Positions 23,567 to 35,296 of a stretch of 35,296 nt of DNA are shown piece by piece. The notes under the pieces are model-generated. The model was not told where the DNA came from and did not search any database. It worked only from the letters and a program-made list of their open reading frames with translations. The DNA comes from Gemmatimonadota bacterium. GTDB taxonomy: Bacteria; Gemmatimonadota; Gemmatimonadetes; Gemmatimonadales; GWC2-71-9. Every line of letters starts with the position of its first letter. Position 1 is the stretch's first letter. The stretch covers positions 19,968 through 55,263 of the forward strand of contig QHTZ01000052.1 of assembly GCA_003221005.1 (NCBI GenBank). Direction: 5' to 3'. The position numbers and the translations under genes were made by a program.

Positions 23567-23592
23567 GGCGCCGCCAGCTTCAGGCGCTTGTT
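23567..23592 (-). other. Degenerate attC half-site (R''/L'' side)
   Basis: GGCGCCGCCAGCTTCAGGCGCTTGTT matches the right arm of intact attCs; core box eroded, other arm absent. Confidence 0.6.
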
Positions 23593-23617
23593 TATCCTGC
23601 TCATGTACGAACTCGAC

Positions 23618-26929: not shown

Positions 26930-26955
26930 CCGCCAGCTTCACGCGCTTGTTAGGC
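26930..26955 (-). other. attC half-site (R''/L'' side only)
   Basis: CCGCCAGCTTCACGCGCTTGTTAGGC with no partner arm. Confidence 0.7.
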
Positions 26956-31096: not shown

Positions 31097-31236
31097 GCCT
31101 AACGGATCGGGCCTAAGCTGCGGGCGACTCGCCCGCTGGCGCAAGAGTGTGGAACGTTAGTCAATCCGCGTCCGCGCAGAACACTCCGATTCCCTTAGAA
31201 CGATCACCGCCCGCCAGCTTCAAGCGCTTGTTAGGG
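31097..31236 (-). other. attC site (140 bp) with IS1595 inserted in R''; original GC end displaced to 32900-32901
   Basis: GCCTAAC 31097 ... CTTGTTAG|GG, where GG is the IS terminus. Confidence 0.9.
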
Positions 31237-31302
31237 CAATAACACAGTTGACACACCTTGTTAGGAGCCTTAGTTATGGAACATAATGGGTGCGATCCGG
31301 CA

Positions 31303-31689
31303 TTAGGTGAACAATCCGATCCTGCGGGCCTCGCGCTCGATTTCCGTAAGCGCGCGAGTGACCTCACCGAGACAGACCCTGAGGAAGCTGCTAGCGCGTT
31401 GTCGCGCGATTTTGCCGACTGGACCTATCGCTACTTGCACATGAACTTGGAAGTTGTATTGCACTGTCTCTCCGTGCGGGACGGCTGCGATTATCATCTC
31501 ATCCTTCGCGCTGTCCCAGACGGGTGGCCAGGTCTTAATCGGCGGACCAATGACGTGATTCCATCCGGTGATGAGGGCGACCGGGATGGTGATTTCGTGT
31601 TTCACTGAACCCGGCGATTTCCCGCTCAAGGTCCTGAATCTCTCGCTGGGCGTGGTCGATGCTATATCGTGAGTCAGCGAGTGGGTCAA
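31303..31689 (-). CDS. IS passenger ORF, unknown function (competing antisense ORF 31276..31608 +)
   Basis: Two overlapping antiparallel ORFs fill the passenger region; which one is real cannot be decided from sequence alone. Confidence 0.4.
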   Translation of the reverse strand: MTHSLTHDIASTTPSERFRTLSGKSPGSVKHEITIPVALITGWNHVIGPPIKTWPPVWDSAKDEMIIAAVPHGETVQYNFQVHVQVAIGPVGKIARQRASSFLRVCLGEVTRALTEIEREARRIGLFT

Positions 31690-31697
31690 TCACTACG

Positions 31698-31832
31698 TTA
31701 GCGGTGCTTGGGTTTGGCTTTCTTCTGTTTGGAAACCTCCGACTTCGGCACGGCGACCAAACGTCGTGTAAGTGTGATCATCCGCCTGAACTTCTCACGC
31801 GGCGTTGGCTCGCGCTCTGGCTTTGGGGTCAT
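31698..31832 (-). CDS. 44-aa basic ORF directly downstream of the transposase
   Basis: MTPKPEREPTPREKFRRMITLTRRLVAVPKSEVSKQKKAKPKHR*, purine-rich GGGGGAAA upstream. Confidence 0.6.
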   Translation of the reverse strand: MTPKPEREPTPREKFRRMITLTRRLVAVPKSEVSKQKKAKPKHR

Positions 31833-31868
31833 CGGCGCCGTTTCCCCCGTAATAGGTGGCGCCGACTC

Positions 31869-32843
31869 TTAGCCTTGCGTCGTCGCGGGGCTCAGGTTGG
31901 CGCCGATCAGGTCCGCGTAGGTAAGGCGCTTGCCCACGATAGCAGCCAGCACGCTCACGAAGCGACCCCGGTCATTGGTGCCCCGGTGATTGAACCGATG
32001 CACCTGTTCGTCAACATACCGGAACAGGTGAAAGGGGTCAACGCTGATGTAGGTACCCTTGATCGCCCGCTTGAGCAAACTCCAGAAGTTTTCCAGGCTG
32101 TTCGTGTGCACCTGCCCGCGCACATATTCCTTGGCGTGGTTGATCATCGCGTGCTGATACAGCTTGGGCAGCTTCCCCTTGCCGTACTGCTGAGTGGTAT
32201 CGGTGTAGAGGTTCGCGCCCTTCTCCACGGCCGCGATGACGTGCCCGTGCAGGCTCCGCTTGCTCACGTTCTTCACGACGACGGCGCGCACGCGGCTGTG
32301 CTTCCCATCCCGGCCGCGCTCCAAGATGCCGAGCACCGGAGTCTTGTCCATGCCGCCAGTCCCGCGAATGACGCGCTTCCGCTTGCTCGCGTGCATAAAC
32401 TTCGCCGCGCCCCCAATGAAGGTCTCGTCCGCTTCGACGGACCCGCGCATCTTAGCGAAGCTCCGGCTCTGCATGGCGAGCCGGATGCGGTGGAGCATGA
32501 ACCATGCAGTCGCCTGCGTCACACCGAGCGCCCGGCCCAACTCGTAGGAGCTGATGCCGTTCTTGGAATTGGCGAGCATCCACACGGCGGGCAGCCATTT
32601 TTCCAATCCAATCGGGCTATCCTCGAAGATTGTACCGAGCTTCACCGAGAACTGCCGCCCACAGTCGCGGCACTTCCAGATACGGCGGGTCTTGAGGAAG
32701 CTGGGGTTCTTCGCTTCGCACGCGACGCAGGATACGCCGTTCGGCCAGCGGAGCGCGGCGAGGAAGGTCAGCGCGCTATCCCGATTGGCGAAATAGCGGA
32801 TGGCTTCATGGAGCGAATTGGGGAAGGCATGGTGTTTGGACAT
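31869..32843 (-). CDS. tnp: IS1595-family DDE transposase
   Basis: RWPNG..CVAC...WKCRDC zinc ribbon, HTH (GISSYEL.RALGVTQ.TAWFMLHRIR), VEADETFIGG, LYTD, HTNSLENFW, YVDE...RFN. Confidence 0.96.
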   Translation of the reverse strand: MSKHHAFPNSLHEAIRYFANRDSALTFLAALRWPNGVSCVACEAKNPSFLKTRRIWKCRDCGRQFSVKLGTIFEDSPIGLEKWLPAVWMLANSKNGISSYELGRALGVTQATAWFMLHRIRLAMQSRSFAKMRGSVEADETFIGGAAKFMHASKRKRVIRGTGGMDKTPVLGILERGRDGKHSRVRAVVVKNVSKRSLHGHVIAAVEKGANLYTDTTQQYGKGKLPKLYQHAMINHAKEYVRGQVHTNSLENFWSLLKRAIKGTYISVDPFHLFRYVDEQVHRFNHRGTNDRGRFVSVLAAIVGKRLTYADLIGANLSPATTQG

Positions 32844-32849
32844 GCAGAA

Positions 32850-32878
32850 AATCTACCCTAGAGGGCTTGGTGTGTCAA
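32850..32878 (-). promoter_or_regulatory. Transposase promoter TTGACA-N17-TAGATT; -35 lies inside the IR, ATG 6 nt after -10
   Basis: Hexamers read directly from the sequence. Confidence 0.7.
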
Positions 32879-32918
32879 CTGTGTTATTGCCCTTGTTAGG
32901 CCACAGCCTAACGCGCCA

Positions 32919-33443
32919 CTATTTGAACTTCTTCCGCAGTCCACCGATGTCGGCCGACTGGTGGAACAACCAGGTTGTGTGCTCTTGGGCGACGGGCTGC
33001 ATTTCCCGTCCGATTCGCGCCTTCACCAGGCGATTGTTGTCGAGGATGAGGGTCGAGAACCAGTTTTGGGCTAGGTTCACCCACGTAGAATCGAAGGAGC
33101 GACCGACCTTGCCTTCCAGCGTTGCCCGCGCCTGCTCAAGGAGCACCGTCGACGTATCGTGCTCCGGGAGCGCGAGGGTGAGGTGCCGCTCGCTTGCGAT
33201 CCGTTCGAGCTTCTGCCGTGCCTCACGATGGGCGCTCACGAGCTTCTCGGCCGCCTTGCGCACGTCGCCATCGGCCCCGCGTTCCGTGGCGAGGGTCGCG
33301 AATGCGATGGTCATAGCATGACGCTTGGCGTAAAGCGAATAGAGCGCGCCCTCGCTCAGGCTGCCGCCAGGGGCCTGAGCTGCTACAGGTGGCGCAAAGC
33401 TCAAACTGCTGATCAGAAGCCAGAATGTGGCGCAAGACTTCAC
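32919..33443 (-). CDS. Secreted DUF4142-like protein (cassette)
   Basis: Signal peptide; A.LA.ERG....VR..A..LV..H......L..IA, L....G..FD..W. Confidence 0.75.
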   Translation of the reverse strand: MKSCATFWLLISSLSFAPPVAAQAPGGSLSEGALYSLYAKRHAMTIAFATLATERGADGDVRKAAEKLVSAHREARQKLERIASERHLTLALPEHDTSTVLLEQARATLEGKVGRSFDSTWVNLAQNWFSTLILDNNRLVKARIGREMQPVAQEHTTWLFHQSADIGGLRKKFK

Positions 33444-33482
33444 GTGATCTCCCCGTTCGCAAGACTGTGGTAAACCGCCGCG

Positions 33483-33623
33483 GCCTAACGGCGCGCGCGT
33501 AAGCTGCGGCGCCCCGCCCAGCAGGGCGCTCCGCCTATCGAGCTGCTCACAAATGAATGCGGGCGCACAACCGCAATTCTACTTCGACTACACCGCGCCG
33601 CCAGCTTCACGCGCTTGTTAGGC
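33483..33623 (-). other. attC site (141 bp; same sub-family as 29321)
   Basis: GCCTAAC 33483, GTTAGGC 33617-33623; the upstream gene's TAA lies in R''. Confidence 0.92.
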
Positions 33624-34136
33624 GCCGGCCCCCGGCACGAAGCGAGGAGGAATGACGGGCGCGCCGCACTCGGCGCAAAACTTCGCATCCGGTGGCACTT
33701 CGTGACCATTCTGACAACGCCACTCGATGCCCTCATCTTCTCGGCGCATCGCGGCATACGCCACACCCCATGCCGCGCCATAGAACACCATGGCGTGGCC
33801 AGAAGCCATGCGCCAGAACCCGGGACCTTCCATTGAGTAAACGCCAAGGAAACCGAGGCCGAAGTTGATGACGGCGTAGACGACGATCCCTTGCAGGAGG
33901 GGGTACAACCAATCCGGCCCCCCTGCGAGCCAGACCTTCCAGCTCCTCCGACCCTGCCCTGTCGTTGAGTCGAAGCGCCGGAGGTAGAACACGGTCGGGA
34001 ACCACACGACGAAGATCCCGATGAAGAGGACTGTTCCTCCCGGACCCAGAAGGTCGTGATGGAAGAGCAATCCTACGTGCCAGGCCGCACTCAGTAGGAG
34101 GCCAATGAACGCAACGGGGGCAAGGAGGCGAGGCAA
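33618..34136 (-). CDS. Membrane protein with C-terminal zinc ribbon (cassette)
   Basis: GGAG SD before TTG 34136; 4 TM segments; CQNGH......KFCAECGAP. Confidence 0.8.
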   Translation of the reverse strand: MPRLLAPVAFIGLLLSAAWHVGLLFHHDLLGPGGTVLFIGIFVVWFPTVFYLRRFDSTTGQGRRSWKVWLAGGPDWLYPLLQGIVVYAVINFGLGFLGVYSMEGPGFWRMASGHAMVFYGAAWGVAYAAMRREDEGIEWRCQNGHEVPPDAKFCAECGAPVIPPRFVPGAGA

Positions 34137-34165
34137 AGCGCGGGCTCCGAAGGGTGGGGCTGTGC

Positions 34166-34306
34166 GCCTAACGGATCGCGCGTAAGCTGCGGGCGACTCG
34201 CCCGCCGGCGCACCCGTCGTTGAACGATAGTTCGTGCGGGCTAGGGCACAACACTCCGCTTCCCTTAAAGCGAGCACCGCCCGCCAGCTTCAAGCGCTTG
34301 TTAGGC
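34166..34306 (-). other. attC site (141 bp; sub-family of 30389/31097)
   Basis: GCCTAAC 34166, GTTAGGC 34300-34306. Confidence 0.92.
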
Positions 34307-34310
34307 GGCG

Positions 34311-34580
34311 TCACAGCCGCGCCACGAGGTTGTCGTAGTCCGCGTGCGACCCGATCCAGAACCAGATCACCGCGTCCCCTTCCCTGACCGCAAGTGCTCG
34401 ATACCCGAGGCCGACCCGCGCCGAGAAAATGGGCCGTGTGGGATGGATCTGTTTGAATCGGACGCTTGGGTGAAACGGGTCGCGGCGAAACAACCGGTAG
34501 GCCAGACGGGCTTGGGCTTGAATCTGCAGCGGCAAGGCGGCGAAGGCCTCGCGAAACCGCGCGGTCGTGTGCGAGGTCAG
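34311..34580 (-). CDS. RelE/ParE-superfamily toxin, probable CTG start
   Basis: (L)TSHTTARFREAFAALP..IQ..AR.AY.LF..DP.HPS.RFK.......S.RV...YRAL.......WFWIGSH.DYD. Confidence 0.85.
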   Translation of the reverse strand: MTSHTTARFREAFAALPLQIQAQARLAYRLFRRDPFHPSVRFKQIHPTRPIFSARVGLGYRALAVREGDAVIWFWIGSHADYDNLVARL

Positions 34581-34795
34581 AGCTCGTCAGGCTCGAGGCG
34601 ACGCGTACGGCCAGCACGGTGCTCCTGCAAGGCTTCGTCAGCCAACTGCTCGAGCGCCCGAGGCTTGGCTGCAAACGAGGCGTCCCAAAGCCCGTCGACC
34701 TTCACCTCTTCGAGGATGGCCGCCGCTAGGGCGTCCTGGTCCGCGGGCGGGAGCTTAGAAGCAGCTTCGAAGGCCTTCTTGAGCTGGTTGGTCAT
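34577..34795 (-). CDS. Putative antitoxin paired with the downstream toxin
   Basis: 72 aa, acidic; L.KAF....KLP...QD..A..IL.E......WD..F......LE.LA.EAL.E; stop overlaps the toxin start. Confidence 0.82.
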   Translation of the reverse strand: MTNQLKKAFEAASKLPPADQDALAAAILEEVKVDGLWDASFAAKPRALEQLADEALQEHRAGRTRRLEPDEL

Positions 34796-34843
34796 GGGAC
34801 AAATCTATGGGAGGCCTGTCCGCAACGCCAAGTGTGCGACGCC

Positions 34844-34933
34844 GCCTAACGGATCGCGCTTAAGCTGCGGCGCGCTGAAGAAGAATTCATTCTCTAATCT
34901 ACGCGCGCCGTCAGCTTCAAGCGCTAGTTAGGG
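34844..34933 (-). other. attC site (90 bp) with a second IS inserted in R''
   Basis: GCCTAAC 34844 ... CTAGTTAG|GG. Confidence 0.88.
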
Positions 34934-35296
34934 CAACAACATACTAGACACACCAAGCCAGGGGCGCTACCCTAATGGCACATGCCATCGGGGGCCTCCG
35001 TGATATCGTCCGTGGTGTCTTTCCCGGCCGCGCATTGCTGCCGCCAGTGGTAGCAGTCGCAACCTATTTCGATGACAGTAGAAAGGGCGGTATTTACGCG
35101 GTCGCTGGATATGTCGGCCATGTTGATGCGTGGGATGAAGTGTTCGCGCCACAGTGGAAAGCCTCAATCAAGCAGGCCCCCCACCCGATCACTGAGTTCG
35201 CGGCGAGTGATTGCGGCAACGGCCTTGGCGAGTTTAGGCCACCATGGACCAAACCTGAGCGCGACTCGCTAACTGAGCGACTTGTATCGCTCATTA
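34932..35296. mobile_element. Left end of a second, distinct IS1595-family element (truncated by the window edge)
   Basis: GGCAACAACATACTAGACACACCAAGCC matches the first element's right end GGCAATAACACAGTTGACACACCAAGCC at 24/28. Confidence 0.8.
34975..35295 (+). CDS. DUF3800-like (RNase H-fold-like) protein, partial; IS passenger (start uncertain)
   Basis: Manual translation ...VATYFDDSRKGGIYAVAGYVG...WDEVF..QW......ITEFAASDC.NG.GEF...W....R..L...LV.LI; open to the window end. Confidence 0.7.
   Translation, partial: MAHAIGGLRDIVRGVFPGRALLPPVVAVATYFDDSRKGGIYAVAGYVGHVDAWDEVFAPQWKASIKQAPHPITEFAASDCGNGLGEFRPPWTKPERDSLTERLVSLI

Follow-up and report, generated by a model that had tools for sequence, protein, structure and literature searches.

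The window analysed here, a stretch of 35,296 nucleotides (nt) from a Gemmatimonadota genome (assembly GCA_003221005.1, contig QHTZ01000052.1), carries two insertion sequences (ISs) of the IS1595 family, element 1 and element 2, both inserted at the identical nucleotide of an attC site, the recombination site of integron gene cassettes. Comparison with relatives revealed a precise insertion position, an exact target duplication, an empty site, insertions in both orientations and the restriction of the targeting elements to one clade. Based on these sequence comparisons, it is probable (we put it at slightly more than 80%) that elements 1 and 2 are distinct members of a single cargo-carrying IS1595 clade, the DDE transposase of which selects one position in double-stranded attC.

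Direct reading of the window reproduced both the extent that the original prediction had given for element 1 (31235–32891, 1657 bp) and its perfect 8-bp target-site duplication (TSD), CTTGTTAG, which is present at 31227–31234 on the left and at 32892–32899 on the right. The element is bounded by perfect 23-bp inverted repeats (IRs). The cargo-end IR, GGCAATAACACAGTTGACACACC, lies at 31235–31257 on the plus strand and is the right repeat (IRR) by transposase orientation, while the transposase-end IR (left repeat, IRL) at 32869–32891 on the minus strand is its exact reverse complement. An IS1595-family DDE transposase of 324 amino acids (aa) is encoded at 31869–32843 on the minus strand, with a zinc ribbon and a DDE domain that matched PF12762 (E 1.1e-34, 120 bits, cut-off 27), PF12760 (E 1.8e-11) and NF033547 (172.7 bits, cut-off 75). 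The residues D139, D215, E251 and K258 were invariant in the transposase alignment. The features by which the IS1595 family is recognised, a DDE transposase with an N-terminal zinc ribbon together with terminal IRs and an 8-bp TSD, are all found in element 1. The cargo open reading frame (ORF) at 31258–31608 on the plus strand encodes 116 aa from a TTG, with an ATG at 31277 after AGGAG, and reads inwards. The attC site struck by element 1 occupies 31097–31234 in minus-strand (cassette) sense and is predicted to form an imperfect hairpin of −49 to −56 kcal/mol, its architecture matching that of the nine other attC sites of the window. Its R' box is GCCTAAC on the plus strand at 31097–31103 and its R'' end, at 31222–31234, reads ...AAGCGCTTGTTAG, the last two bases (GC) being displaced beyond the element to 32900–32901.

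Element 2 could be followed in the window for 365 bp only, as the contig stops at window base 35296. It adjoins an attC site at 34844–34931 on the minus strand, approximately 90 nt long when intact, in which the target 8-mer CTAGTTAG was read directly at 34924–34931. The cargo-end IR, GGCAACAACATACTAGACACACC, follows at 34932–34954 on the plus strand and differs from the IR of element 1 at 4 of 23 positions, as a recount of the earlier figure showed again. The 5' part of a DUF3800-like cargo gene then occupies 34975–35296 on the plus strand and is cut at the contig end. A search of the whole assembly of the window's genome (G000) found no further copy of an IR, transposase or cargo gene, and nothing more of element 2. 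The complete element was found in the metagenome contig L126, which is 100% identical to window positions 34810–35296 over 487 nt. There it measures 2102 bp, with IRs at both ends (the IRR being identical to that of the window) and CTAACTAG on both sides. Its 323-aa transposase belongs to the IS1595 family, also matches NF033547 and is 78% identical to that of element 1. The 288-aa cargo protein matched PF12686 (DUF3800; E 6.5e-06) and is 100% identical over 107 aa to the part encoded in the window. The transposase, the second IR and the CTAGTTAG duplication that had been expected beyond the contig end, the second target copy at the far end of the element, were therefore all present.

Around element 1, a second metagenome contig, L084, shows 100% identity to the window across 1699 nt, and elsewhere it contains an uninterrupted attC that is 98.9% identical over 92 nt to the attC of element 2. 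Behind this attC stand CTAGTTAG and, directly after it, the same 13 nt that lie beyond element 2 in L126, so that L126 and L084 provide a clean comparison of the filled and the empty site. L084 was also seen to depart from the window (34700–34931 region) in the middle of an attC, where it carries other cassettes, an indication of cassette reshuffling between near-identical strains.

Both window junctions lie in the ...CAGCTTCAAGCGCT(T/A)GTTAG|GC end of attC; their position after the GTTAG of the R'' box, as originally claimed, was read directly in both sites. The struck end is the R'' end, because each attC comes after its cassette ORF on the minus strand and because this arm has the extra L-box base, which marks the '' arm. 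In cassette sense, the target reads GC|CTAACAAG|CGCTTGAAGCTG, and the duplication spans five bases at the end of R'' plus the three-base spacer.

Transposase relatives are present by the thousands in soil metagenomes, and the few named ones come from Gemmatimonadota and Terriglobales. Two locus sets were picked by peptide patterns within the transposase, the flanks playing no part in the selection. The close-relative set contained the 80 closest metagenome loci (66–100% identity) out of 599 matched stretches, 442 of which were relatives. The outgroup set contained 80 loci (L004–L083) of 52–64% identity from species-representative genomes of many phyla. At least one element end was present in 77 of the 80 close-relative loci (L137, L142 and L160 were without any). 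Together with the two window elements these made 79 insertions, which were merged into 50 site clusters. Two insertions were joined when one or the other flank, outside the conserved arm, was at least 85% alike, a conservative rule that lumps different elements in similar 90-nt attC sites. A perfect 8-bp TSD was seen in most close relatives with two ends.

The expectation that homologues would sit mostly in attC was borne out for this well-supported clade: the same nucleotide at the R'' end was struck in 45 of the 50 clusters, with CTAACAAG or a one-base variant as the TSD. Counted from the rows, the TSD was exactly CTAACAAG in 38 clusters, CTAACTAG in two, CTAACCAG in three, and CTGACAAG and TTAACAAG in one each. 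Both conserved attC arms, 89–146 nt apart, were present in 24 clusters, and only the cassette-side flank was on the contig in 12. In the aligned view, CGCTTGAAGCTG directly followed the 8-mer in all 33 clusters having any interior flank and GC preceded it in 39 of 41. The concentration of 45 of 50 sites at one position excludes chance. The five remaining clusters were L120 (CTAGATTG), L140/L159 (flank GATAACTC, other flank missing), L163 (GAAAAGCT), L104, which has one attC-type and one unrelated flank, and L155, which has 7 nt of flank in all (cttgtta). The passenger end had been described as lying on the same side of both junctions. This is correct for elements 1 and 2, where the cargo end is on the left, but it is not a rule, as 27 clusters had one orientation relative to the cassettes and 18 the other (p 0.23).

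A tree of 145 transposases was built by a quick LG+G4 search with SH-aLRT support and no bootstrap; rows shorter than 260–285 aa, with internal stops or without a flank were left out. The transposase of the window fell in a clade of 73 rows (SH-aLRT 98), of which 70 had the attC-type 8-mer. The three others were L120, L140 and L159, while L163 and L013 branched just outside the clade. On the tree, the attC 8-mer label had to change 14 times, compared with 47 times under shuffling, and none of 500 shuffles gave so low a number; near-copies inflate this clustering. The wider family at 52–64% identity shows the generic preference for AT-rich 8-mers that had been named as a refuting outcome, so that attC homing is a property of one clade (roughly 68% identity and above) and not of the IS1595 family. 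The attC-homing lineage that had been proposed stands for the clade. Ten residues are invariant in the clade but seldom seen elsewhere, six of them within the N-terminal 100 aa that hold the zinc ribbon; these may serve as a lead to the determinants of target specificity.

Nearly all outgroup elements measured 2.0–4.0 kb, had the IR consensus GGCAATAATATACTTGACTCACC and carried 1–3 kb of cargo behind the transposase gene. In 58 of the 80 outgroup loci the 8-bp TSD was perfect and the flanks could be used. The target consensus was palindromic, ccCTWRYWAGgg, and many of the 58 perfect TSDs depart from it. We know of no described target specificity in this IS1595 subgroup. Outgroup sub-lineages were seen to favour particular 8-mers, CTAATTAG or CAAATTAG recurring about eight times. 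Outgroup elements were rarely in attC: L028 clearly, L014 by eye, and L052 and L013 doubtfully; a folding filter found an R-box partner for L028 and L052 alone. Relatives were also found in 8 of 300 other genomes of the window's own family. The full-length matches above 70% identity among them, L169 (79%, TSD CATGTTAG) and L170 (73%, TSD CTTGTTAG), were both in attC, and relatives at 58–64% identity were outside attC. A partial match of 77% identity (L174) had the flank ...GTCTAACCAC. One 6.4-Mb genome of this family (G283) carried three copies of a 61%-identical relative (L171, L177 and L178) with equal match scores. They lay at non-attC sites with the TSDs TCTACTAC and GAAAAAAA, which points to recent activity of this outgroup element. 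No relative above 41% identity was found among the PLSDB plasmids.

The best surviving alternative holds that there is no special attC homing. The elements would share the generic 8-bp preference of the family (CTWRYWAG), most good matches to which happen to lie in attC sites in G+C-rich genomes with large arrays, and insertions elsewhere would have been purged by selection. Three null models were run on G000 as one background genome. A weight matrix derived from 52 non-attC outgroup sites ranks attC sites in the top ~0.0001% of G000 positions, which favours this alternative, but predicts 0.3–0.7% of insertions in attC. The strict consensus CTWRYWAG occurs 49 times in G000, approximately 10 of these being distinct attC sites and one lying inside element 1. 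At the resulting chance rate of 10/47 (~21%), the probability of at least 45 attC insertions in 50 is 4e-25, and it is 7e-4 even at an assumed attC chance rate of 70%.

Several observations weigh against the attC-homing reading. CTAACAAG is a perfect instance of the outgroup consensus, and several outgroup elements in Gemmatimonadota hosts are found at such 8-mers (L010, L014, L028 and L052). A separate small group (L010, L014 and L052) has CTAACAAG itself as the TSD, with L014 alone attC-like by eye; the 8-mer can therefore be struck outside attC. The exact 8-mer is found 13 times in G000, of which 10 copies are attC-derived (nine distinct sites, one doubled by duplication) and one is within element 1. 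Owing to this near-confinement to attC in a genome of 69% G+C, a plain 8-bp specificity would already give mostly attC matches, and this is the main weakness of any claim that attC as such is recognised. In hosts whose arrays are very large, more attC insertions would be expected by chance. The short metagenome contigs may stem from few communities, and the clusters, although conservative, are not proven independent. Exceptions exist within the clade (L120 with CTAGATTG, L140/L159 with GATAACTC, and L104 with its one unrelated flank). Survivorship, whereby insertions in genes are purged and those in attC are tolerated, inflates the attC share; however, it cannot produce single-nucleotide precision.

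A generic preference without attC homing nevertheless appears unlikely. The outgroup is loose in its choice of target, but 45 of the 50 clusters of the clade show one and the same 8-mer or a form of it that differs by one base. The clade never uses CTTGCAAG, which a count from the rows showed to be the most frequent consensus 8-mer in G000. G000 contains the variants CTAACTAG, CTAACCAG, CTGACAAG and TTAACAAG 36 times in total, with a single copy in attC, whereas all four variant-8-mer events of the clade with a testable interior flank were in attC. Because the variant 8-mers are used in attC alone, the neighbouring attC arm is suggested to contribute to recognition beyond the 8-mer; the case for this wider recognition depends on four variant events and one background genome.

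The original prediction had left open whether homing proceeds by sequence or by the folded attC hairpin. The first of these is favoured, in the form of sequence recognition on double-stranded DNA. Recognition of a folded single-stranded attC hairpin or cruciform, in the manner of the integron integrase and the group IIC-attC introns, is very improbable even though the targets are structured sites that fold and the outgroup targets are often centred on short palindromes (2.22 complementary flank pairs of 6 versus 1.70 in shuffles; 0 of 2000 as high). Strand-specific recognition of a hairpin should fix the orientation, yet the two orientations are used without significant bias, and an 8-bp duplication requires that the two strands of a duplex be cut in a staggered manner. 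Insertion moreover takes place at the base of the attC stem, whereas in the outgroup palindromes it takes place at the apex, and the target of L088 keeps the sequence but little of the stem. This target, in the right flank of L088, is a mini-attC of approximately 39 nt whose arms lie immediately next to each other (CTAACAAGCGCTGCAGCTTAAGCGCGATCCGTTAGGC); it may have arisen by deletion and was still targeted.

The spread of one ancient insertion by the integron integrase as part of gene cassettes, to which the almost intact attC beside the element and the changes of cassette order at attC sites in L084 could be attributed, was rejected as practically negligible in view of the different 8-mers each exactly duplicated on both sides (CTAACTAG, CTGACAAG, TTAACAAG and CATGTTAG), the presence of different elements (transposases 68–100% identical, different cargo) in different attC sites with different cassette-side flanks, and the empty site of element 2.

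Selection of one attC position by the clade's transposase most likely involves recognition of the duplex sequence reaching beyond the duplicated 8 bp; the 8-bp duplications and the two orientations argue for the duplex rather than the folded hairpin. Staggered cuts at CTAACAAG in duplex attC would yield the 8-bp duplication by ordinary cut-and-paste or copy-in transposition. CTAACAAG consists of CTAA and the complement of CTTG, a perfect instance of two CTWR half-sites. A symmetric transpososome may read the duplex target, each half reading CTWR, and its recognition would extend into the flanking attC arm. The loose palindromic preference ccCTWRYWAGgg would have been sharpened in one lineage onto an abundant and harmless host repeat, attC sites serving as harmless, horizontally mobile landing pads. 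The terminal ...GCC of the element abuts CTAAC, and the attC on one side is consequently altered in the outermost R'' base alone (CCCTAAC for GCCTAAC). The upstream cassette together with the element could still move as one large cassette through this residual attC.

The cargo gene lies at the IR on the other side from the transposase gene and points inwards, so that the two genes are convergent. Nearly all of the approximately 135 delimited elements carry 0.6–3 kb of cargo downstream of the transposase gene (0.6–2 kb in the attC clade). A total of 157 cargo ORFs of at least 180 aa fell into 56 families, the largest of which, DUF3800-like, had 35 members. These families are few, recurrent and common to the attC clade and the outgroup, which marks them as long-standing associates of the transposase and not as captured cassettes. 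Capture of the cargo as integron cassettes was rejected, as the same families occur in distant non-integron relatives, and it is also contradicted by the internal TTGTTAGG beside the IR, which has the wrong sense for a cassette start. One recurrent family (L129:4956–6122, minus strand; related members in L010, L026, L028, L048, L050 and L058) has a RelA/SpoT domain (Pfam E 4e-14) and matched the PADLOC phage-defence candidate PDC-S33 (E 1.8e-93). The trypsin-like cargo of L117 showed a weak match to PDC-S45. Neither PADLOC nor NCBIfam had a match to the element-1 cargo ORF, and most cargo families were likewise without one. The element-1 ORF belongs to no Pfam family and is 31% identical over 99 aa to the cargo of L152, covering the first third of that family alone; this truncation and the small size of element 1 suggest a deletion derivative. 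Directly inside the cargo-end IR of element 1, TTGTTAGGAGCC (window 31257–31268) holds the AGGAG ribosome-binding site of the cargo gene and, when the final C of the IR is included, forms another copy of the target 8-mer CTTGTTAG. At least 12 further elements (e.g., L091, L102, L105, L108–L110, L113 and L152) have this sequence at the equivalent place; it may be a target mimic, a relic or a coincidence.

The host genome is a member of the Gemmatimonadales with an assembly of 2.79 Mb (69% G+C) in 141 contigs. An integron cassette array takes up the right third of the window. Conserved-arm matching and folding delimited ten attC sites of 89–141 nt each between ~26168 and 34931. They have the form GCCTAAC...GTTAGGC, with R'' boxes of the type RYYYAAC and R' boxes of the type GTTRRRY bracketing imperfectly complementary L'' and L' arms and predicted hairpins of −39 to −70 kcal/mol. 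Each site is preceded by a minus-strand ORF (one site per cassette). The array ORFs encode a DUF4142 protein, a zinc-ribbon membrane protein, and a ParE-like toxin with its partner. The last two form a toxin–antitoxin pair in the cassette at 34311–34795 (minus strand), where the toxin gene (PF24732, E 4.8e-12) has an upstream partner ORF of 72 aa. An extra right-hand attC arm is present at 26934–26953, with no left box within 200 nt, and a degenerate arm at 23575–23594 (CAGCTTCAGGCGCTTGTTTA) appears to be the distal end of the array. An integron integrase was detected on another contig of the assembly (C10:4933–5808; TIGR02249, 378.5 bits, cut-off 265), adjoined by two attC sites of the same type as those of the window (C10:6510 and 7152); C10 and the window array are separate contigs in the assembly. 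With an integrase beside attC sites, the integron of this genome is genuine. The integrase match contains one in-frame TAG, which may denote a pseudogene or a match overrunning the gene end, and the integrase appears to share the orientation of the neighbouring cassettes.

Among known systems, the IS1111-attC group of the IS110/IS1111 families (ISPa21, ISKpn4, ISPst6 and others) is described as ISs at one end of cassette attC sites with a DEDD transposase guided by a seekRNA (PMC11187229). The present clade shares with that group the same ecological niche, a harmless mobile landing site, but differs in its DDE transposase, 23-bp IRs, 8-bp TSD, insertion in both orientations and cargo genes. 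In place of a DEDD transposase with a guide RNA, the sole transposase in these elements is of the IS1595 DDE type. Tetu & Holmes in 2008 and Post & Hall in 2009 are said to have described the IS1111-attC elements as without such terminal IRs, without an 8-bp duplication and fixed in orientation. Group IIC-attC introns are likewise presented as mobile elements specialised on attC (PMC3001079, PMC9229058). They are retroelements, composed of a ribozyme and a reverse transcriptase, and their insertion is confined to one strand and oriented in a fixed way relative to the cassettes (PMC9229058). The specialisation on attC is common to the introns and the present clade, whereas the present elements are DDE transposons inserting in either orientation. 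The IS1202 family consists of DDE ISs with IRs that target dif/pdif in a single orientation 5 bp from the site (PMC10132070). Both that family and the present clade are DDE ISs at site-specific recombination sites, but IS1202 is a different family and its targets are XerC/D sites.

IS1595 elements in cassette arrays have been examined in one study, which found none in attC (PMC9229058). The statement of the original prediction that no attC-specific IS1595 group is known agrees with a full-text literature search, which found no IS1595 or ISNwi1 element reported as attC-specific; ISfinder and key subscription papers were outside the scope of this search, and unpublished or database annotation is possible. 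Cargo-carrying IS1595 elements such as ISNwi1+ and ISPna2+ are known, and the ISNwi1 (ISNwi1+) subgroup was reportedly found to carry cargo by Siguier, Gagnevin & Chandler in 2009. We tentatively call the present group ISNwi1-like, the criteria being a DDEK motif, ends reading GGnnATTAT and passengers in the "+" forms. Features of this type were seen in D139/D215/E251/K258, in the IR consensus GGCAATAATATAC and in the presence of passengers. The likeness to the ISNwi1 subgroup extends to the zinc-ribbon IS1595 transposase, the 8-bp duplication, the IRs beginning GGnnAT.AT, the D-D-E...K motif and the cargo; the difference is the attC targeting seen in the present clade, as the full-text search found neither a target specificity reported for the subgroup nor anything that connects it with attC.

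Elements homing to attC and cargo-bearing IS1595 elements are each known, and their combination is new. A further reading, which we offer tentatively and hold somewhat less likely to be right than wrong, is that the clade would be the first DDE IS lineage specialised on attC, reading the R''–L'' arm as a duplex and providing an integrase-independent route of gene entry, with the cargo later mobile through the integrase as part of a composite cassette. If this were true, candidate anti-phage genes (PDC-S33 RelA/SpoT-like and DUF3800) would be among the cargo entering cassette arrays.

The usual view is that integrons acquire genes solely as cassettes, by way of the integrase, and the only attC parasites known to us are the IS1111-type elements and the group IIC introns. 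The present clade would mean that attC has been colonised a third time and by a quite different mechanism, with DDE transposons inserting at one nucleotide position in either orientation. It may also offer a natural example of a loose palindromic target preference sharpening to site specificity within one transposase family. The elements suggest a route by which non-cassette genes, including candidate defence genes, may enter the chromosomal integrons of abundant soil bacteria.

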